From positions 13,510-77,509 of IMG/VR virus record IMGVR_UViG_3300007775_000157: a DNA stretch of 64,000 nucleotides. The stretch is one strand, 5' to 3'. Made by a program: the position numbers and the translations under genes. Numbering within the stretch: position 1 is the first letter of the stretch; each line of letters starts with the position of its first letter. The notes under the pieces are model-generated. The model was not told the DNA's origin and searched no databases. It saw nothing but the letters and a program-made list of their open reading frames with translations. Origin of the DNA: a virus. Below, piece after piece: positions 7,404-21,148 of the stretch.

Positions 7404-8101
7404 TGACAAACTTTGGACTCGGATTAGATTTACCATCAAATTTTGATCGCCAATTAAAAAAGGGGATTAAGCAAGAGGGGTCTAAGAAATTTGCCTCAAG
7501 AGTTTTTGCAAAAGCTTCTATTATTTCTAAGGACATAGGTAATTTGTTGGTATATAAATTTGAATCTAGTATAGTAGCCAAAGCTCTTAGGGGACATAGT
7601 GCGACAGACCTTCCCGCACATCTTGGGTTATCTGATGCATTAGCTAACGCTTTCGTTGATGGTATGGCTGAACTGATCAGGTCTTCTGTTAAATTGTCTG
7701 CCCATTCCATTAATGGTCAAGTTGTTATAAACATTAAAGCCGTTGAAGACAACTGGGCGCAATATCTTAGTTTACCTGGCGCTGAATATATTTCTCAGAA
7801 ATCCGGCATAGTCATTCCTGTTGCAAAATGGTTGCTAATTGATCCTAATATAGATATAGGACAAGCATCATATGATATAGTTTTTCTGGGTGAGTCAACG
7901 AAATTTGACGCAAGAATCAGAAAAGTATCTAGAAGTGGGAGAGCTATTATGGTAGATTTAGAAACGCTTGGCGGAAGTGGAGGGTATGTTCTTCCTAATA
8001 TCATATCCGGCCAAACCGGAGAGAATTTTATAGAATACACACTTCGACAGCCAAGAGTATCAAGCGAAGCTGTTCAGTTTTTACTTAAGAGGGTGAAATA
8101 A
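7403..8101 (+). CDS. Putative neck / head-tail joining protein
   Basis: The start ATG overlaps the upstream TAA (taatg). It lies before the terminator and tube candidates. Function is inferred from synteny only. Confidence 0.45.
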   Translation: MTNFGLGLDLPSNFDRQLKKGIKQEGSKKFASRVFAKASIISKDIGNLLVYKFESSIVAKALRGHSATDLPAHLGLSDALANAFVDGMAELIRSSVKLSAHSINGQVVINIKAVEDNWAQYLSLPGAEYISQKSGIVIPVAKWLLIDPNIDIGQASYDIVFLGESTKFDARIRKVSRSGRAIMVDLETLGGSGGYVLPNIISGQTGENFIEYTLRQPRVSSEAVQFLLKRVK

Positions 8102-9104: not shown

Positions 9105-10220
9105 ATGGCTCAGAACCGTATATTTTATGCGATACAAGCACTAGGTTTTGCTCCGCATGAGCAATTATGCCCGTTGGATGCAGGCAATCTGCATACCGGA
9201 TCGGGTACTCATCCGTCAGGCTTTATAACAGCCCATGGCGTTCAAAGTGTTGGACTCAACACGACTTTTAATCTAGAACAGATATTTGAATTGGGTCAAT
9301 TAGAGCTTTACGAAAACATTGAAGGTATTCCCGACATAGAAGTAACCTTGCAAAAGGTTCTTGACGGATATCCTCTATTATATCATTTGGCTACACCGAA
9401 TGCAACGTCCGCGACTCTTGTTGGACGATCTAATGAAAGATGTTATGCCGCTCTCAACATTTATCCAGATACCAACGATAATGCATCGGGAACCCCTTTG
9501 CAGTCTGTAGGCATGTCTGGTATGTACGTTTCTACTCTGACGTATACGCTGAACGTAGAAGGCAGTTCTACCGAAGATGTTACTCTTGTTGGTAACGATA
9601 AAGAGTGGATAGCCAGTGGGTTAAATCACTTCGCACCAAGTGTTTTTGATGGTTCCGACGAACCTCTATCTATTACTACGTCTGGTGGAGTAGCCCAGAG
9701 AGAGAATATTCTGATGGGTAGCGGAGTTTCTATGGGAAGCGACGGTACTATTACAGGGGTTAGCGGGAGTCTGTTCCCGGTTGCTATAGATGGCATAGAT
9801 GCCAATGGACATAATCTTGATTCGGGTGACGGATCATTTAGTGCCCACCTTCAAACTATTACTATTAGCACGGACCTTGGCAGAGACGAATTATACGAAC
9901 TCGGCCGTAGAGGCCCTTATCATAGATTTGTTTCATTCCCCGTTGAAGTTACTTGCGCGATAGACTCAACTTCTTCGGAAGGCGACTTAATTGATGCCTT
10001 GGCTGATCCGCCAGGAGGCACTAATTTGTCTAACGAGAAGATTTTTGTTTGGGTGGAAGAAGGTACTCGTATTAATCTTGGAGCAAAGAATAAGTTGGCT
10101 TCCGTGACCTACGGAGGCGGCGATGCAGGTGGAGGAAACGTGACAGTTACATATAATTATTCAAACTTTAATAGCTTAAAGGTCACTCACGTCCAAGACC
10201 CTGCTGGTTTGGCAACATAG
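9105..10220 (+). CDS. Major tail tube protein
   Basis: 371 aa, acidic and beta-rich, with an internal duplication (EQIFELGQ / DELYELGR). It has its own promoter and a strong terminator, and fits by synteny. Confidence 0.65.
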   Translation: MAQNRIFYAIQALGFAPHEQLCPLDAGNLHTGSGTHPSGFITAHGVQSVGLNTTFNLEQIFELGQLELYENIEGIPDIEVTLQKVLDGYPLLYHLATPNATSATLVGRSNERCYAALNIYPDTNDNASGTPLQSVGMSGMYVSTLTYTLNVEGSSTEDVTLVGNDKEWIASGLNHFAPSVFDGSDEPLSITTSGGVAQRENILMGSGVSMGSDGTITGVSGSLFPVAIDGIDANGHNLDSGDGSFSAHLQTITISTDLGRDELYELGRRGPYHRFVSFPVEVTCAIDSTSSEGDLIDALADPPGGTNLSNEKIFVWVEEGTRINLGAKNKLASVTYGGGDAGGGNVTVTYNYSNFNSLKVTHVQDPAGLAT

Positions 10221-12146: not shown

Positions 12147-12455
12147 ATGACAATAGAAGATGCTAAAAGAAAAGTAGACGAAATTATTAGGTCGAGTGGA
12201 ACAACACATCCAAAGATTTCAGTAGTGCAATTGGCTGGTATAGTTAAATATCTTATAGGCGCACTAGATAGAATCAAAATGCCGAAAACGACTGTGCTTA
12301 GTACGCTTCCATATGACAAGGTTGAAATTGATCCACAAAATCAACTTAATAGAACTCCACCTTTGACCCCAGATAGAAAAAGATATTTTGATCAACCAAA
12401 CAAGGATGGAAAAGAGGAAAATCCACTTCCTCCGATCCCACCGGAGACAGAATAA
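12147..12455 (+). CDS. Hypothetical protein with Pro-rich C-terminus
   Basis: GGAG ribosome-binding site; stop overlaps the next start. Confidence 0.6.
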   Translation: MTIEDAKRKVDEIIRSSGTTHPKISVVQLAGIVKYLIGALDRIKMPKTTVLSTLPYDKVEIDPQNQLNRTPPLTPDRKRYFDQPNKDGKEENPLPPIPPETE

Positions 12456-13420
12456 TGTGTCAAATAAAAGAACATACGTGTGATGTCGTACGAATCAAAC
12501 TTGAGAATCATCCAAATGCAGATGCGCTTAGCATAGTACATGTTAAAGATTTTCAATGTGTTGTAAAAACATCTGATTGGAAGGATGGGGAGTTGGCTGT
12601 GTACATCCCCCCAGACAGCGTTGTTCCGAACACAAAACCGTTCGATTTTCTCAACGGTAATACAAGGATCAAGGCGAGAAGACTTCGGGGGGAATGGTCT
12701 ATGGGATTATTGGTCCCAGCCCCAGACGGAGCTAAGGTGGGCGACGATTACATGGAGTGGATGGGTATTACACACTACGATCCTCCGATTAAGAGCCATT
12801 TTTCTACTGGGGGAGATAACACAAATGCGCCACCAGGGTTTATCCCAAAATATGACGTTCTGAATTTTCGAAAATACGCGCAAGTATTTCAGGATGGAGA
12901 AGAAGTTGTCGTGACAGAAAAAATTCACGGAGCAAATACTAGATTTGTTTGTCACAACGATCAAATGTTCTGTGGATCAAGGAACAACTGGAAAAAAGAA
13001 GACCCTAATAATCTATGGTGGAAAGCTTTGAATCAAAATCCAGCGCTCGAAGCATGGCTAAGACGCAATCAGGATTATGTAGTTTACGGGGAGATTTTCG
13101 GGAATGTTCAAAGTCTAAAATATGGTGCTACAAATGGTCAAATATTTTTCGCTGTTTTTGATATCATGAAAAATAATCAATGGCTTGACTACGACGAAGC
13201 ACACGAGATAGGTAAACCTTTGACTTGGGTTCCGTTGGTTTTTCGTGGTCCATTTAACAAAGAGCAAATACTTGAGTTTGCCGAAGGCGATAGCATCTGG
13301 CCAGAAGCCAATCATCATGCAGAAGGTGTTGTTGTAAAGCCTGTGAAAGAGAGAACAGAAAGAAAAATAGGCAGAGTTCAGTTGAAGGTAGTAGGGAATA
13401 GATATTTGAGCAAAAGTTAA
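12455..13420 (+). CDS. ATP-dependent RNA ligase, DRB0094/Rnl5-like, with N-terminal OB/tRNA-binding-like domain
   Basis: N-terminal HPNADAL; nucleotidyltransferase motifs EKIHGAN, YGEIFG, FAVFDI, EGVVVK and LK. Confidence 0.88.
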   Translation: MCQIKEHTCDVVRIKLENHPNADALSIVHVKDFQCVVKTSDWKDGELAVYIPPDSVVPNTKPFDFLNGNTRIKARRLRGEWSMGLLVPAPDGAKVGDDYMEWMGITHYDPPIKSHFSTGGDNTNAPPGFIPKYDVLNFRKYAQVFQDGEEVVVTEKIHGANTRFVCHNDQMFCGSRNNWKKEDPNNLWWKALNQNPALEAWLRRNQDYVVYGEIFGNVQSLKYGATNGQIFFAVFDIMKNNQWLDYDEAHEIGKPLTWVPLVFRGPFNKEQILEFAEGDSIWPEANHHAEGVVVKPVKERTERKIGRVQLKVVGNRYLSKS

Positions 13421-13431
13421 AAGGAGAAAAA

Positions 13432-13722
13432 ATGCCGTACATATCCTTAAAAGATAGACAAAAATACGACCAATATATTAATGAGATTGCAAATTCTTTG
13501 TTGAAGTCTGAGAATAATGATGTTTTAAGCGGAGCAATGAACTACATACTTTTCCGTCTTGCAAAAATCCTGTGCGATGTTGATTCTGGTGGTTCCAGGA
13601 GCTATGCTCGAATGGCCGTTGTGTCTTCTGCTATGTCGGAGGCTCAAGCAGAATTTAGGCGAAGGATTATGGCTCCGTATGAAGATGAAAAGATAGAACA
13701 AAACGGTGATGTTGTATGTTAA
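13432..13722 (+). CDS. Conserved phage hypothetical protein
   Basis: 'MPYI...G.MNY...AEFRRRIMAPYEDEKI..NGDV' pattern; AGGAG ribosome-binding site. Confidence 0.7.
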   Translation: MPYISLKDRQKYDQYINEIANSLLKSENNDVLSGAMNYILFRLAKILCDVDSGGSRSYARMAVVSSAMSEAQAEFRRRIMAPYEDEKIEQNGDVVC

Positions 13723-14163: not shown

Positions 14164-15285
14164 ATGTCTTATACCTATTGTGTTTTTGGAGCAGGACGAC
14201 AAGGTGTGGCTACGGTCTACGACCTAATAATCAACTGCGAGGCTAGCCGTGTCATATTGTGTGATCCAAACCAAAAGGTATTAGACGAAGCTAAGAATAG
14301 ACTCGATGATCTTTTGCCAGAAAATAAATGTCCTATCGATACGTTTCAGGACGTATCATTAAAGGTTGATTTCAGTAGGGTGGACGTTATTCTTAGTTGC
14401 GCTACGTGGTCCGCGAATTTAGGCTTGGCTAGGTTCGCTGCGACATACAATGTTCCATACTGCGACCTGGGAGGAAATCCACATATCGTGACACGACAGG
14501 GATTGATAGATACTCACACAGCCATTGTTCCTGAGTGCGGATTATCTCCAGGTATCTCAAATATATTGGCTATGGGATTAGCCAAAGAAGGTTTCCACGA
14601 AATACAGATTAAGTGCGGCGGAATACCCGTAGGGACATCTAGGGGTAATGACCCCCTAGAATACAAGCTTACTTTTGATGTAATGGGTCTAATAAGTGAA
14701 TATAGTGGCGTGGTCCCTACTATTCACGATGGACGAATAGTGAACAGAGATACTATATCTAGAATAGTCCCGTATATACGACCAGACGGATCGAAATATG
14801 AATGTTCATATACGTCGAACAACTCACTCGCTGTGGTACAGTCGTTGTTAAATGCTGGCGTAAATAATTATGAATACATGACAATAAGGTATCCAGGTCA
14901 TTGGGATAAGGTAAAACAATGGAAAACTCTTGGATTCCTACAAGGAGACGATGAGTCAGACGCAACACTCGCAGATATTCTGAAACGTAGGCCTGGACTC
15001 AAATATAACAGAGACACAGACGAAGATAAAGTGATATTATCTATAGTAGGGAAAAATGGTAACGATTTTGTTTGTGGACTTTATGGATTTGATATAGTCG
15101 TGTATTCAGATTGGAAAACTAAATTTTCAGCCATGGAAATGATGACTTCCTGGGGGATAACCATGGTGGCTCATTTCATTGCTTCTAACCCGTCTTTGGT
15201 GCCAAAGAGATTTTGCACTCCAGAAAATTTTGTTCCATCAGAATTTATTATGAACGGTATTAAGAAAAGAACTGGAGACAAGTAA
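14164..15285 (+). CDS. Saccharopine dehydrogenase / lysine 6-dehydrogenase family oxidoreductase
   Basis: Rossmann motif GAGRQG, plus YCDLGG, ECGLSPGISN, CGGIP, GLISEY and TIRYPGH. Confidence 0.85.
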   Translation: MSYTYCVFGAGRQGVATVYDLIINCEASRVILCDPNQKVLDEAKNRLDDLLPENKCPIDTFQDVSLKVDFSRVDVILSCATWSANLGLARFAATYNVPYCDLGGNPHIVTRQGLIDTHTAIVPECGLSPGISNILAMGLAKEGFHEIQIKCGGIPVGTSRGNDPLEYKLTFDVMGLISEYSGVVPTIHDGRIVNRDTISRIVPYIRPDGSKYECSYTSNNSLAVVQSLLNAGVNNYEYMTIRYPGHWDKVKQWKTLGFLQGDDESDATLADILKRRPGLKYNRDTDEDKVILSIVGKNGNDFVCGLYGFDIVVYSDWKTKFSAMEMMTSWGITMVAHFIASNPSLVPKRFCTPENFVPSEFIMNGIKKRTGDK

Positions 15286-15287
15286 AT

Positions 15288-15656
15288 ATGAAGATTTTTA
15301 TACTAGAAGACGACCCCAATAGAATGAAGACATTCAAGAAAGCCTTGTCTGGGCATTCAATAGACCATGCGACCAACTGCGAAGAGGGAAGAACAATAGT
15401 ATCGTCGAACACCTACGATCTTATCTTCCTTGATCATGACCTGGGAGGGGAGCAGATGGTAGATTCTTCTCACGAGAATACTGGTTATCAATTGGCTAAA
15501 TTCATGAAAGAGAACGGATACAACACCGAAGTCCCATGTATTGTTCATTCGTGTAATCCAGACGGGGCAGATAATATAGCATCCCTTTTGTGTCATGCTG
15601 TTAAAATCCCTTTCCCTTTTATAGATTTTATTAAAGTGTTATCGTATTTTGGGTAA
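15288..15656 (+). CDS. Cyclic-phosphate-processing receiver (cREC-like) domain protein
   Basis: Motifs ILEDD, FLDHDLG, TGY and IVHSCNP.GA. Confidence 0.75.
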   Translation: MKIFILEDDPNRMKTFKKALSGHSIDHATNCEEGRTIVSSNTYDLIFLDHDLGGEQMVDSSHENTGYQLAKFMKENGYNTEVPCIVHSCNPDGADNIASLLCHAVKIPFPFIDFIKVLSYFG

Positions 15657-16347: not shown

Positions 16348-16773
16348 GTGCAAGCGAACTACAGAGAATTAAAGGGTTATAAATATGAATTGGTAGAAGA
16401 TTACAGAGTCGTTATTCCAATTTTTGGCATGAGTATCGACCACAGATTTATCCAACTACATCCTAGTGGCTTGCTAATTATTAAAAAAGAATATGCTTGG
16501 GATGGGCCAAGTGGGCCGACGATAGATACTCCAACATTCATGAGAGGTTCTTTGGTCCACGATGCGCTTTACCAATTAATTAGATCGGAAGCCTTAGACG
16601 TATCTTTTAGAGAACAGGCGGATAAGATACTTAGAGATATCTGTTTAGAAGATGGCATGAATAGTATAAGGGCTTGGTACGTGTATTGGTCTGTTAGACT
16701 GTTCGCTGCCAACTGCGCCAAACCAGGGACACAAAAGCCATATAAAGTTTATAGTGTGCCATCTAAAAAATAA
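16348..16773 (+). CDS. DUF1353-like protein
   Basis: WDGPSG...SLVHDALY...ADK motif. Confidence 0.7.
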   Translation: MQANYRELKGYKYELVEDYRVVIPIFGMSIDHRFIQLHPSGLLIIKKEYAWDGPSGPTIDTPTFMRGSLVHDALYQLIRSEALDVSFREQADKILRDICLEDGMNSIRAWYVYWSVRLFAANCAKPGTQKPYKVYSVPSKK

Positions 16774-17350
16774 TAATATTAGGAGATTCAATGTGTCTAA
16801 AAGCAGTAGTTGGATTCAAACTTTTACAGGCAAACAATTTTTTCTAGAAACAGCAGAGACAATAGACATAGAAGATATAGCTCATTCCTTATCTATGACA
16901 TGTAGGTTTAATGGTCATTGCACAAGATTTTATTCTGTAGCAGAACACTCCATACGTGTATCGGACATGTTGAGTGCCGATCTTGCTCTTTGGGGTCTTA
17001 TACACGATGCGGCAGAAGCATATATCGGAGACATTCCTTCTCCGATCAAAAGAAATCTAATGTATTATGCGCCAAATGAATATAGTACCAGTATCAAGAC
17101 TGTTGAAGCGAGAATAATGAGAAAAATTTCTGAAAAATTTGGTCTCAGATGGCCAATGCCAAAAGAGGTTACACATGCTGATTTAGTTATGTTGGCAACA
17201 GAAAAGCGAGACCTGATGAAACAAGAACCTGCTCCATGGCTACCTTTACCGGACCCACTAGAGGAAAGGATAGTAGTTACAATGTGTCCACAAGAAGCTA
17301 AAGAAAAATTTCTTAGATTATTCAGAAGTTTTAACAAGACATACAGATAA
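16754..17350 (+). CDS. HD-domain deoxynucleotidase (YfbR/YfdR-like)
   Basis: IEDIAHSLS..CRFNGH, YSVAEHS and LIHDAAEAYIGDIPSPIK. Confidence 0.85.
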   Translation: MCHLKNNNIRRFNVSKSSSWIQTFTGKQFFLETAETIDIEDIAHSLSMTCRFNGHCTRFYSVAEHSIRVSDMLSADLALWGLIHDAAEAYIGDIPSPIKRNLMYYAPNEYSTSIKTVEARIMRKISEKFGLRWPMPKEVTHADLVMLATEKRDLMKQEPAPWLPLPDPLEERIVVTMCPQEAKEKFLRLFRSFNKTYR

Positions 17351-18003: not shown

Positions 18004-18309
18004 ATGAAAATTCTATTAGACATAGATGATACCGTCTTTATTCGTGGCGATCTTCATCCTTCTTGGTCTGATTTCGTGGAATTGGTAAAGAGAGAAGATT
18101 ATCGTGTTGTTGTGTGGTCCTCTAACGAAGACGGCTTGGCTATAGCAAAACTTATGGGATTTGATTTTGTGTCTAAAAATGAATATGATTCACATCCATT
18201 AGCAAAGGTGTTAATAGATGATTGCTGCGACTTAAATAAACAATGTTGTCGAGTGGAAGAAACATTCGAATCCTTGGATAGCTTTATGGAAAAATACGAC
18301 AGAGTGTAG
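18004..18309 (+). CDS. Small HAD-superfamily protein
   Basis: LLDIDDTV motif I, WSS motif II and LIDD motif IV. Confidence 0.6.
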   Translation: MKILLDIDDTVFIRGDLHPSWSDFVELVKREDYRVVVWSSNEDGLAIAKLMGFDFVSKNEYDSHPLAKVLIDDCCDLNKQCCRVEETFESLDSFMEKYDRV

Positions 18310-18375
18310 CTCAACTGGCTTTAGAGCGCCTGGTCTGGAGCCAGGAGGCTGGGGGTTCGAGTCCCTCCACTCTGA
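18300..18375 (+). tRNA. tRNA-Pro(TGG) with atypical anticodon loop
   Basis: Acceptor CAGAGTG/CACTCTG and arm CCTGG-TCTGGAG-CCAGG. It overlaps the upstream stop codon. Confidence 0.88.
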
Positions 18376-18389
18376 TTGATGTCGATATT

Positions 18390-18770
18390 TTGGATGTAGA
18401 AACAATGGATTTATCTTGTGTGCATACTTTTATATGGGACATGCAATCGCGGGGTATAGACCCCAAAGATGTCGCCTATCTTCTGGTAAATGACGATGAT
18501 TACATAGATTTACTCAAAGATTATCAAGGGAAAAATTTTGCTCAAACCACCTTTAGTTCTTCGTCCGATTTCGTATTACATGGAATACCAATTATAAAAA
18601 GTCCAGTGGTCGGTAAGGCAGAAATCTTTACAGTGATGAAAGATATGATAAATACATATGGAAACAATGCAATATTCCAATACGATATTCCTCCTGTAGT
18701 CCCGACCAACAAAAAACCAGAACAACAAGAAAAAAAACAAAAATCAGACAAGAGAATAATAAGGCTTTAG
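18390..18770 (+). CDS. Hypothetical protein resembling an HK97-fold capsid A-domain fragment
   Basis: 'LLVN..DY..LLKDYQGK...VLHGIPIIKS' pattern. Confidence 0.5.
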   Translation: MDVETMDLSCVHTFIWDMQSRGIDPKDVAYLLVNDDDYIDLLKDYQGKNFAQTTFSSSSDFVLHGIPIIKSPVVGKAEIFTVMKDMINTYGNNAIFQYDIPPVVPTNKKPEQQEKKQKSDKRIIRL

Positions 18771-18841
18771 GGGAGGTAGCTCAATGGGAGAGCATCGGCT
18801 TTGCAAGCCGGAGGTTGCGGGTTCGAGTCCCGTTCTTTCCA
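18770..18841 (+). tRNA. tRNA-Ala(TGC)
   Basis: Cloverleaf, loop TT-TGC-AA and G3:U70 pair. Confidence 0.93.
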
Positions 18842-18942: not shown

Positions 18943-19425
18943 ATGGCAACAGAACTAGCCTTGGCAAAACAATCAATGAATAAAACTATTTCTATTCTAA
19001 GAGAAAGAACGACGGGAATAGACAACAATGTCAACGATATACTCGTATCTACGGTATTCGTTTCTATAAATGGACAAAAAACAGCACTGAAAGAACTTAG
19101 TGCAATAAACCAAAATACGAAAACAAGGACAATAAGTATTATACCATATGACAGGACTATGTTACCAGAGATTACCAAAGAATTGATCCGGCAGGGATTT
19201 GACGCCTATCAATTTTCTCCAACAAATATATCTGTCAATATACCTTTGCCGTCTGGCGAAAACTACAAGAAGGTTCTTGCGCATATTAAAAGTCTTGGAG
19301 AAGAAGCCAAAGTAGCAATTCGGAATATTAGACGTAAGTATATGAAAAAATGCGACAGAGAAGAACTTCAGAAAGTAACCGATAATTCTATAAATAGAAT
19401 AGACGAAATAATAAAAAGAACTTAG
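18943..19425 (+). CDS. frr: Ribosome recycling factor homolog
   Basis: ISIIPYD, V.IPLPS.E, EEAKVAIRNIRR and LQKVTD..I..IDE. Confidence 0.88.
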   Translation: MATELALAKQSMNKTISILRERTTGIDNNVNDILVSTVFVSINGQKTALKELSAINQNTKTRTISIIPYDRTMLPEITKELIRQGFDAYQFSPTNISVNIPLPSGENYKKVLAHIKSLGEEAKVAIRNIRRKYMKKCDREELQKVTDNSINRIDEIIKRT

Positions 19426-19440
19426 CAGACTGGAGATTGT

Positions 19441-19644
19441 ATGACTAAGAAAGCGTATAGTTTTGGAGATAATAGATTAAAGAGAATTACAAGATTTTTG
19501 TATAAGTGGTTGTTCTGTGCGTGGTTACACAAAAAGAATCGTTGTAGTCCTTCTAATCCAAAAAGTTGGCATTGCACCAAGTGTCATCCGTGTGGAGAAG
19601 AATTTGATTTGGTTTCAGGAAACAAGAGAATGAGATGGTTATAA
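19441..19644 (+). CDS. Small Cys/His-rich hypothetical protein
   Basis: GGAG ribosome-binding site; C..H..C..HCTKCHPC pattern. Confidence 0.5.
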   Translation: MTKKAYSFGDNRLKRITRFLYKWLFCAWLHKKNRCSPSNPKSWHCTKCHPCGEEFDLVSGNKRMRWL

Positions 19645-19650
19645 TTGTTT

Positions 19651-19753
19651 GGGCTGGTAGCTCAATGGGTAGAGCGTCCTGCTATTCCGATGATGGCTCG
19701 TAAGAGTCAGCTTAGGTTCAGGAAGGTTGCGGGTTCGAATCCCGTCCAGCCAA
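19651..19753 (+). ncRNA. tRNA-like RNA with 37-nt structured region in place of the anticodon loop
   Basis: Canonical D arm (TAGCTCAATGGGTAGAGC), anticodon stem TCCTG/CAGGA, T arm GCGGG-TTCGAAT-CCCGT and acceptor GGCTGG/CCAGCC. Confidence 0.85.
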
Positions 19754-19883
19754 TTTAAAACACACAAAGTAAACTAGAATAGAACAAAAAAGGAAATTGC
19801 AGTTAGTAAAATACTAAGTATAGCATTTACTGTAGTCTATTTTAGAACTTACATTATGGAAAGTTGTCTATACGGGGTTTAAT

Positions 19884-20081
19884 ATGGATAAAATAGAACA
19901 AAATGTTTTGGATGGATTAATGGTAGCGTGGAATAACTTTGTTAAACTAAAATCAACACATCCAGACGACTTAAACGACTTTCGCAGATCATTGCATGAA
20001 TGTGAGCGTATTATTGGTATGCGACAATTAAGAAAAATTGATCCAGATAGGTGGATAACTTTAGAAAATGTTGATGAATGA
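19884..20081 (+). CDS. Small hypothetical protein
   Basis: Coupled to the RNA ligase gene by an ATGA overlap. Confidence 0.6.
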   Translation: MDKIEQNVLDGLMVAWNNFVKLKSTHPDDLNDFRRSLHECERIIGMRQLRKIDPDRWITLENVDE

Positions 20082-21148
20082 ATGTTATGGATCATATGAA
20101 CGCATATATCAAAGAGAGAGACGATTACGTAACTAGGGGATTGCTCAGATGCGACGATCTCGATGATCTTAGAGTCTATACATATACTAACTCGTGCAAA
20201 CATTGGGATTACATTACTATGAACAGCAGAGGCATAATTGTTAATAGGAAAACAGGTGAGATAGTATCGCAACCCTTTCCCAAGTTTTTTAACATGGGCC
20301 AAAGACAGGAGACTCAAGAACATAACCTCCCCTGGCACGAAGGTTTTAGAATTTTTGAAAAATGTGACGGATGGCTTGGAATTTTATATAGACATAACGG
20401 GCAGTATAAAATAGCTACGAGAGGGTCTTTCAAGAGTACTGGGGCTTTATGGGCTACTAAGATTCTTAATGAATGTTATCGTCTAGATGGTTTACCAGAC
20501 GAAGTAACTTTGTTGTTTGAACTTATATCTCCGTTAACTAAAATAGTTGTAGATTATGGGCAACGAGAAGATTTAGTTTTACTAGGAGCATACAATAGAC
20601 ATACAGGAGAAGAATACCAATGGGACCAAGTACAGTCGTGGGGAGAAGAGTTCGGATTCCTCACTGCAAATTCGTGGCCGAAAGAGTATCTTGGATATTG
20701 TAGGGGACTTCTAAAATCTAAACCAGGAAATGAACTTGAAGGGTTCATAATTCGTTTTGCTAATGGTCTTAGAATAAAAATAAAATCAGAAGACTACTTT
20801 AGAAGAAGTAAGATTTTACAACAAATAAATCCGCTTGGTATCTGGGACATAATGCAAAATGGTAATTTACCAGAATATATCTGGAATATGGTTGATAAGG
20901 ACTACCACGAAGATATCGAGAAAATATATCATACTCTTGCATCCAGATATCGGACCATAAGAGAAGAAATAGATAATCAATACAAGGTTTGCACAGGTGC
21001 TTCCAGTAGAAATGTTTTTGCTAAAATAGCTAAAACAATGTCCCATGCACCAGCCATGTTTTGTCTCCTAGACAAACAAGACAACAAAGTGGATGAATAT
21101 ATTATGAAAAAGATACGACCCAAAAATAATATTTTGGAGAACGAATAA
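20078..21148 (+). CDS. RNA ligase 1 (T4 RnlA-like)
   Basis: SRGII, PFPKFFN, EKCDGW, ATRGSF, FELI, EGFII and KIKSEDY. Confidence 0.9.
   Translation: MNVMDHMNAYIKERDDYVTRGLLRCDDLDDLRVYTYTNSCKHWDYITMNSRGIIVNRKTGEIVSQPFPKFFNMGQRQETQEHNLPWHEGFRIFEKCDGWLGILYRHNGQYKIATRGSFKSTGALWATKILNECYRLDGLPDEVTLLFELISPLTKIVVDYGQREDLVLLGAYNRHTGEEYQWDQVQSWGEEFGFLTANSWPKEYLGYCRGLLKSKPGNELEGFIIRFANGLRIKIKSEDYFRRSKILQQINPLGIWDIMQNGNLPEYIWNMVDKDYHEDIEKIYHTLASRYRTIREEIDNQYKVCTGASSRNVFAKIAKTMSHAPAMFCLLDKQDNKVDEYIMKKIRPKNNILENE

Follow-up and report, generated by a model that had tools for sequence, protein, structure and literature searches.

Phage tRNA clusters have long been known as a source of stable RNAs, such as species 1 and 2 of T4 and RNA1 of T5, and the small RNAs of both clusters accumulate in this stable form. 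T4 rnaC and rnaD, as well as T5 RNA1, RNAI, RNAIII and RNA2H, are annotated as being of unknown function. Another kind of tRNA mimicry is found in Y RNAs of the YrlA type (RF02553), which occur in phages too and combine a tRNA-like domain with a Ro60-binding stem; their 5′ and 3′ ends lie in the Ro-binding stem and not in an acceptor. In the "tRNA scaffold" that Ponchon and Dardel reportedly engineered in 2007, a foreign hairpin takes the place of the anticodon loop while the tRNA body is said to secure processing and stability. Finally, the tRNA genes of Lak megaphages carry "enigmatic" short inserts in the anticodon region that are not group I introns (Devoto et al., 2019, PMC6784885). These inserts, which tRNAscan-SE identified as introns in its eukaryotic mode, leave an anticodon that can be typed and do not differ between cohorts (PMC6784885). 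Beyond this study, we found no description in the literature of the tRNA look-alikes reported below.

Here we describe a 103-nt tRNA-shaped RNA gene at positions 19651-19753 (+ strand) of the window, by which we mean the whole 64,000-nt stretch of DNA that was analyzed. It belongs to a 77.5-kb IMG/VR virus record estimated to be ~46% complete. Our preferred reading, to which we assign a probability of roughly 0.45, is that the element is a working, unspliced and non-decoding tRNA-shaped RNA. An earlier note on this DNA had also read it as a tRNA-shaped RNA that is not an ordinary decoder, and had considered a non-decoding RNA likelier than an intron. That much holds, whereas the conserved insert module, the bulge-helix-bulge, the promoter and the link to an Rnl1 ligase that the note also proposed do not. 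Contigs of two soil metagenome runs, possibly the very source of the record, contain the window DNA unchanged; no RNA run is listed as a carrier of the sequence.

The element lies inside the phage tRNA cluster, on the same strand as tRNA-Leu and 727 nt past it. Its 3′ end is the discriminator A73 and no CCA is encoded. Rfam model RF00005 aligns to 19651-19753 (+ strand) over its complete length (model 1-71) with a score of 50.3 bits, above the family threshold, and the 35 extra bases in this alignment all fall in the anticodon loop. ARAGORN at default settings reports only four ordinary tRNAs in the window (Glu, Pro, Ala and Leu) and misses the element; with introns allowed, as the earlier note had suggested, it adds a call at 19650-19754, a tRNA-Pro(agg) whose modeled intron measures 30 nt. 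Under a covariance model that we built from 22 tRNAs of the phage's own clade (R1), the element scores 59.7 bits, more than the tRNA-Glu (53.2 bits) and the tRNA-Leu (41.5 bits) of the same window.

In the acceptor stem, GGGCTGG (19651-19657) faces CCAGCCA (19746-19752) with six Watson-Crick pairs and a G1.A72 mismatch, and the acceptor and T stems together form 11 of 12 pairs. The D arm (GCTC-AATGGGTA-GAGC, 19660-19675) holds the equivalents of G18 and G19, and G26 can be read in the sequence between this arm and the anticodon stem. The latter, TCCTG/CAGGA (19677-19681/19719-19723), is perfect both in the sequence and in the RNAfold prediction, with all 5 bp paired. It is followed by the variable loop AGGTT and the T arm GCGGG-TTCGAAT-CCCGT (19724-19745, the T arm itself at 19729-45). 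The resemblance of the D and T arms to those of the nearby tRNA-Ala (18770-18841), already pointed out, amounts to 14/14 and 21/22 identical bases, and the third acceptor pair is indeed G3:C70, not G3:U70. Apart from 1:72, all stems and all invariant loop bases are intact. The G1.A72 mismatch, which the earlier note had also recorded, is the sole visible flaw and could be a defect; we know of no anticodon-independent identity set that the combination of G1.A72, A73 and G3:C70 would match. No relative in IMG/VR shares this acceptor.

What departs from a canonical tRNA is the anticodon loop, which measures 37 nt (19682-19718, + strand) where 7 nt would be canonical, just as first described. This expanded loop, or insert, is unique in the genome and matches no RNA family: among Rfam families it retrieved only RydC, at an E-value of 0.99, and no intron. 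In the RNAfold prediction, the cloverleaf is retained and the loop becomes an irregular hairpin with a GNRA cap. In both the minimum-energy and the centroid folds, a 5-nt/2-nt asymmetric loop, 2 bp and a 5x5 internal loop lead to the hairpin TGGCTC-GTAA-GAGTCA (19694-19709, + strand), which has 6 bp including one G.U and a GNRA-type loop. The GNRA hairpin that had been proposed is thus predicted by RNAfold but is at most marginally better than chance: the insert alone reaches -10.1 kcal/mol, compared with -6.1 +/- 2.3 for shuffled sequences, and 5.8% of the shuffles are as stable. The CTA/TAG helix proposed alongside it is absent from the minimum-energy fold, which pairs CC/GG instead. A bulge-helix-bulge consists of two 3-nt bulges with 4 bp between them, and not even the partial version that had been suggested forms in the minimum-energy or centroid fold.

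These results bear on whether the insert could be removed. In a pre-tRNA, ~30 nt would be cut out by a host or phage nuclease still to be identified, and the repair enzymes of the island (Rnl1 or a second ligase) would heal and seal the halves into a functional tRNA whose loop would be unusual, for example CU-AGG-UU; we consider this improbable. ARAGORN -i does place its 30-nt intron between positions 33 and 34, at what we take to be the bond that T4 Rnl1 reseals after PrrC cleavage, and two RNA ligases and a cyclic-phosphate-processing domain are encoded within 7 kb. The tRNAs of these loci also include odd ones, with A34 (His(atg) in L044, Asn(att) in L039 and L080) or an unusual loop (the C33 Pro(UGG) of this phage), and there is a precedent in the unexplained introns of Lak megaphage tRNA genes (PMC6784885). 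However, single excisions can only generate the 7-nt loops UUAGGUU, CUAGGUU, CUAUGUU, CUAUUUU, CUAUUCU and CUAUUCC. None of these six distinct loops has a purine at position 37, in agreement with the earlier note, so that no one excision of the window loop recovers a loop with both U33 and a purine at 37. The absence of a bulge-helix-bulge also speaks against an intron, as does the body of the element, which is nearest to the Trp, Asn and Gln tRNAs of relatives and not to Pro. G1.A72 is presumably at odds with proline identity, and the phage already encodes a tRNA-Pro(UGG). Our searches of the 77.5-kb record (46% complete) found no tRNA-intron endonuclease (PF01974), RtcB or Ro60/TROVE protein (PF05731), and the three complete carriers of look-alikes, G001, G003 and G034, have neither a tRNA-intron endonuclease (PF01974) nor a TROVE gene. 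Ligase-dependent splicing is therefore unlikely. That the element is a true pre-tRNA whose insert is removed by a new bacterial or phage nuclease, with the enzymes of the surrounding island (Rnl1 or the second ligase, together with the cyclic-phosphate-processing domain) healing and sealing the ends, appears decidedly improbable. Were it so, it would represent protein-dependent tRNA splicing in the bacterial world, and might shield the anticodon loop against host anticodon nucleases for as long as the repair kit is not yet expressed. A group I intron was rejected on size, as the insert spans 30-37 nt and the ribozyme core (P3-P9) requires ~200 nt or more.

With a 37-nt loop from which U33 and R37 cannot be recovered, and with G1.A72 in the acceptor, the element very probably cannot read codons, as far as can be judged from its sequence.

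We also considered where the insert might come from. A repeat or mobile mini-element is ruled out by its single copy in the genome, and an antisense RNA was rejected because the best match on the reverse strand is only 10 nt long (E 1.6). An origin in tRNA fragments had some appeal, as the hairpin resembled a shortened D arm, but 77% of shuffled inserts match tRNAs equally well; the figure in the same test for the insert of the complete relative G003 is 12%. No DNA homologue of the insert was found in the collections that we scanned. Exact and degenerate patterns for insert and stem gave only chance matches in IMG/VR (L003-L005), where we also found no insert-free tRNA with a 7-nt loop on a TCCTG/CAGGA stem. 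A search for this stem across 185,579 species genomes returned only four odd Bacteroidota loci. We observed that an AUG AUG in the insert opens a 22-codon frame (19691-19759) running through the T arm to a UAA just past the RNA, and that the element of G001 has an AUG too, in the same frame relative to the T arm. This frame is probably due to chance given that no Shine-Dalgarno sequence precedes it.

The insert could instead be the functional part of the molecule, the version that the earlier note favored. In such a tRNA-scaffolded aptamer, the 37-nt arm would bind a particular protein, such as a Ro60-like protein, a synthetase or a defense nuclease, and the body would only stabilize it. The arm can form a long irregular hairpin with a GNRA cap. 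Against this, the fold of the arm lacks significance, no Rfam family matches it, no relative conserves it, there is no TROVE/Ro60 gene here or in the three complete carriers, and no conserved neighboring gene was found. We regard such an aptamer as very improbable.

Similar elements proved to be present in other phages. We retrieved 64 phage loci through an alignment of Rnl1 and searched five complete close relatives for tRNAs. Two of the complete relatives each carry one long tRNA match. In G003, the match spans 104 nt and has a 37-nt loop, in which ARAGORN models a 30-nt intron at position 35; the identical loop and intron lengths and the shared position of the two elements could be taken to favor an intron. 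In G001, the match spans 95 nt and has a 30-nt loop, the T arm of the window element and a TCCT/AGGA stem core. The other three complete relatives (G002, G007 and G009) have none, implying that the gene is dispensable. Further look-alikes have a 31-nt loop that forms a 14-bp extended arm (L044) or a 20-nt loop (L074 and four sister contigs), and one is carried by a contig of a Bacteroidota MAG (L088). A 26-kb sludge contig, L083, has three different expanded look-alikes (7930-8043, 9175-9276 and 9401-9481) that adjoin normal tRNA-Gln and tRNA-Leu genes; such elements are also found in L081 and L084. In total, there are at least seven other distinct look-alikes with anticodon loops of 15-45 nt (G001, G003, L044, L074, two in L083, and L088), a count that leaves out two unparsed candidates, L083 9175-9276 and L040 11834-11933.

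In the parsed look-alikes, 11-12 of the 12 pairs of the acceptor and T stems are formed, and no two inserts are alike. The expansion is in the anticodon arm in all of them, across unrelated phages. Only one of the eight elements with a clear anticodon stem can yield U33 and R37 by a single excision, compared with 28% of random 30-nt loops, a class-wide rate below random expectation that speaks further against introns. Since the anticodon-loop signature is lost while those of the D and T loops are kept, the sequences argue that the look-alikes do not decode as a class. They also lend no support to the proposal of a structured module conserved in the insert: it is kept by no homologue, and the inserts of the nearest look-alikes, 15-45 nt long, are unrelated to it. 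We found no orthologue of the window element itself. The G001 element may be orthologous, yet this is not demonstrable, since the T arm is matched equally well by that of an ordinary tRNA-Asn in L010. Nor do we claim a family based on the TCCTG/CAGGA stem shared by the window, L074 and L088, as this sharing is partly an effect of the search.

Several other features of these loci deserve mention. The insert of G003 (L070 2785-2821, minus strand) contains GGGTAGAGG twice in tandem (GGGTAGAGG-CA-GGGTAGAGG), with a TGAAC/GTTCA helix closing the repeat, and is G-rich and quite unlike that of the window. In L074 (3965-4420; likewise in L076, L077, L080 and L082), the ~450 nt past the look-alike are non-coding and strongly conserved, with 19 variable columns out of 453, and contain more T-arm-like modules (GCAGG-TTCGAAC-CCTGC and CCGGG-TTCAAAT-CCCGG). 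This arrangement suggests a tandem array of tRNA-derived RNAs. In one tRNA gene of this lineage (L074 4294-4366, equivalent to L080 1323-1395), four contigs have TCT (Arg) as the anticodon where L080 has ATT; the loops CT-TCT-AA and CT-ATT-AA amount to an anticodon switch between near-identical phages. Relatives also encode 73-nt tRNAs of class I shape with the anticodon UAG (L006 5113-5185, L010 5723-5795 and L011 4338-4410), which are typed as Leu yet have no long variable arm, and others whose anticodons begin with A34 (His(atg) at L044 7073-7149; Asn(att) at L039 358-429 and in L080). Both kinds are unusual for bacteria.

Substitution patterns give a mixed picture of the class. In the five contigs of the L074 lineage, none of the 88 columns of the look-alike varies, its 20-nt loop included, whereas the upstream gene varies at 45 of 358 columns, 32 being third codon positions, and the spacer at 15 of 93 (look-alike versus gene, Fisher p 4e-5). 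Judged by this alignment, the lineage is under purifying selection, and hence at least some look-alikes are, loop included. The opposite is seen in L081, L083 and L084: over ~1,300 aligned bases, of which only ~330 are present in all three contigs, all three differences fall inside a single expanded element (L083 9401-9481). They are a D-loop change, a loop indel and the break of an acceptor pair, a pattern that looks like decay or rapid change.

A serious rival to our preferred reading, although the less likely of the two, is that the window element is a dead or dying gene: an ordinary phage tRNA gene that received a 30-nt insertion in its anticodon loop and has not yet decayed or been deleted. 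The insertion could have arisen by, for instance, illegitimate recombination in the tRNA cluster, and any RNA made would be a mere by-product of transcription through the cluster. Such an origin is compatible with two short, similar words, GCTA and GCTTA, that bound the 30-nt segment. The insert is unique, without a conserved homologue, and its hairpin is equalled by 5.8% of shuffles; the G1.A72 mismatch, the complete relatives that do without the element, and the L081/L083/L084 element that bears all local differences, including an acceptor-pair break and a loop indel, point the same way. Judged by the refuting condition that the earlier note had set itself, this rival gains further weight: no homologue has a conserved insert and no RNA run carries the sequence. 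On the other hand, the stems and invariant loop bases are intact save for 1:72, and the element outscores some working tRNAs of the same phage. The parsed expansions are always in the anticodon arm and recur across unrelated phages, one lineage is clearly under purifying selection, and IMG/VR holds neither an insert-free allele nor a normal tRNA having this anticodon stem. Useless DNA is, moreover, usually quickly lost from phage genomes. The evidence on the window's own copy is compatible with function as well as with decay.

The genomic neighborhood helps to define how the element may be expressed. A cysteine-rich ORF of 67 aa (19441-19644, + strand) ends 6 nt before the RNA; its only homologue, in L011, adjoins an ordinary tRNA-Leu, and we found no conserved neighboring gene. 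The hexamer TATAAT (19640-19645, + strand), which overlaps the stop codon of this ORF, does sit 5 nt upstream of the RNA as reported, but it is probably not the promoter that it was taken for: it has no -35 partner, the promoter scan is silent there, and the same strand of this AT-rich window contains 47 such hexamers. We found no terminator-like site on the + strand between 18000 and 21500, and promoter-like sites are no more numerous than in shuffled sequence. Together with the start of the RNA 6 nt past the upstream stop, this makes co-transcription plausible, and the cysteine-rich ORF and the RNA are probably on one transcript.

An Rnl1-type RNA ligase (20078-21148, + strand; PF09511, E 3e-20) starts 325 nt downstream of the RNA. 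The proximity had been noted correctly, but the specific partnership read into it does not stand. Relatives encode an Rnl1 ~60% identical to this one among normal tRNA genes: ordinary tRNA genes lie within ~1.5 kb of Rnl1 in 7/10 of the closest relatives' loci, and a distance of 20-43 nt separates the end of a normal tRNA from the Rnl1 start in L010 and L013. As the clade keeps its ligase among ordinary tRNA genes, adjacency does not indicate a specific pairing, and its generic nature weakens the case for an intron. The scan with the single Rnl1 protein gave no match, and it is the scan with an Rnl1 alignment that yielded the 64 phage loci; other contigs are listed for the identical Rnl1 protein, and our comparison covers the 64 loci. 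The cultured-phage collection includes no close DNA relative, and the best Rnl1 match in cultured phages is 34% identical. Among carriers found independently of Rnl1, the sole one searched, a 36-kb fragment, has no RNA ligase, too small a sample to be informative.

The ligase and the tRNA cluster belong to a larger island that also encodes a second RNA ligase (12455-13420; PF09414 with a PHA02142 OB domain), a DUF6899 protein (13432-13722), a saccharopine-dehydrogenase-like protein (14164-15285), a cyclic-phosphate-processing receiver domain (cREC, 15288-15656), an HD-domain protein (16754-17350) and a DUF4326/SLOG protein. No polynucleotide kinase was found by Pfam among the ORFs scanned. Within the tRNA cluster lies a short, 160-aa homologue of ribosome recycling factor (18943-19425; PF01765, E 4e-20), and a copy 48% identical to it is directly upstream of Rnl1 in L011. 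The tRNA-Pro(UGG) of the cluster (18300-18375) has perfect stems and an odd loop, U-C-UGG-A-G, in which position 33 is C and not the near-universal U, and position 37 is A and not G; the tRNA-Pro(UGG) of relatives has U33 (TT-TGG-GG in L011, TT-TGG-AG in L010). The RNA-repair genes of the island suggest that this phage faces tRNA-cutting defenses, a line of thought previously elaborated for phage tRNAs (PMC10264068).

If the element is indeed a working, unspliced and non-decoding RNA, we envisage that it would be transcribed jointly with the same-strand genes of the tRNA and RNA-repair island. Its top half would then be recognized by RNase P, by the 3′ trimming enzymes and by the CCA-adding enzyme, and this processing would release a stable RNA of ~103 nt, which would be left unspliced. 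The same cuts would sever the message of the upstream ORF from the downstream message encoding ORF19884 and Rnl1. Any action would be exerted via the tRNA body and not via the specific insert. The RNA may function as a mark for processing, or it may be a look-alike, harmless in itself, that keeps tRNA-gripping host enzymes such as anticodon nucleases occupied. The sequences establish the fold, the lost anticodon-loop signatures, the recurrence of look-alike genes and the lack of conservation in the insert, whereas expression and processing, as well as any decoy action, are inferred; a decoy role is a conjecture, and it would require the RNA to compete with very abundant host tRNAs.

The window copy is chiefly of value as one more member of a class that recurs and is poorly described. 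Uncultured phages from soil and sludge repeatedly carry near-perfect tRNA bodies in which the anticodon end is swapped; these genes behave unlike ordinary introns, with purifying selection acting on at least one lineage. If they are tRNA-body mimics, they would provide phages with a cheap countermeasure or processing device at the RNA level, of relevance to the arms race around tRNA-cleaving defenses. If they are spliced, they would reveal an undescribed route of tRNA splicing in bacteria and phages.

How does the element compare with the systems from which we started? With canonical tRNAs (RF00005) it shares the full cloverleaf, the elbow bases, a 5-nt variable loop and a location in a tRNA cluster, but its anticodon loop is 37 nt long instead of 7, lacks U33/R37 and is accompanied by G1.A72, and it is very unlikely to decode as these tRNAs do. 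Like the Lak introns, the insert interrupts a phage tRNA gene in the anticodon region; unlike them, it restores no canonical loop and has no homologue. Protein-spliced tRNA introns of archaea and eukaryotes (position 37/38) resemble it as short inserts in the anticodon loop, and RNA ligase genes are nearby in the window; the window insert, however, has no bulge-helix-bulge, is not at 37/38, comes with no EndA-type endonuclease and leaves no canonical loop after excision. The YrlA-type Y RNAs (RF02553) likewise represent tRNA mimicry by a non-decoding RNA, but the window has neither an RF02553 match nor a TROVE (PF05731) gene. The T4 and T5 cluster RNAs are, as the element would be, non-coding and non-decoding RNAs encoded among phage tRNA genes, and T4 rnaC and T5 RNA1 also have a tRNA-like T arm and acceptor end. 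They score ~15 bits with R1, matching it in the T arm only, where the window element reaches 59.7 bits, and share no sequence similarity with it; their accumulation is established, whereas the window element is a predicted RNA. The architecture as a whole is that of the engineered tRNA scaffold, with the difference that the latter is a laboratory construct and the window element a predicted natural gene.
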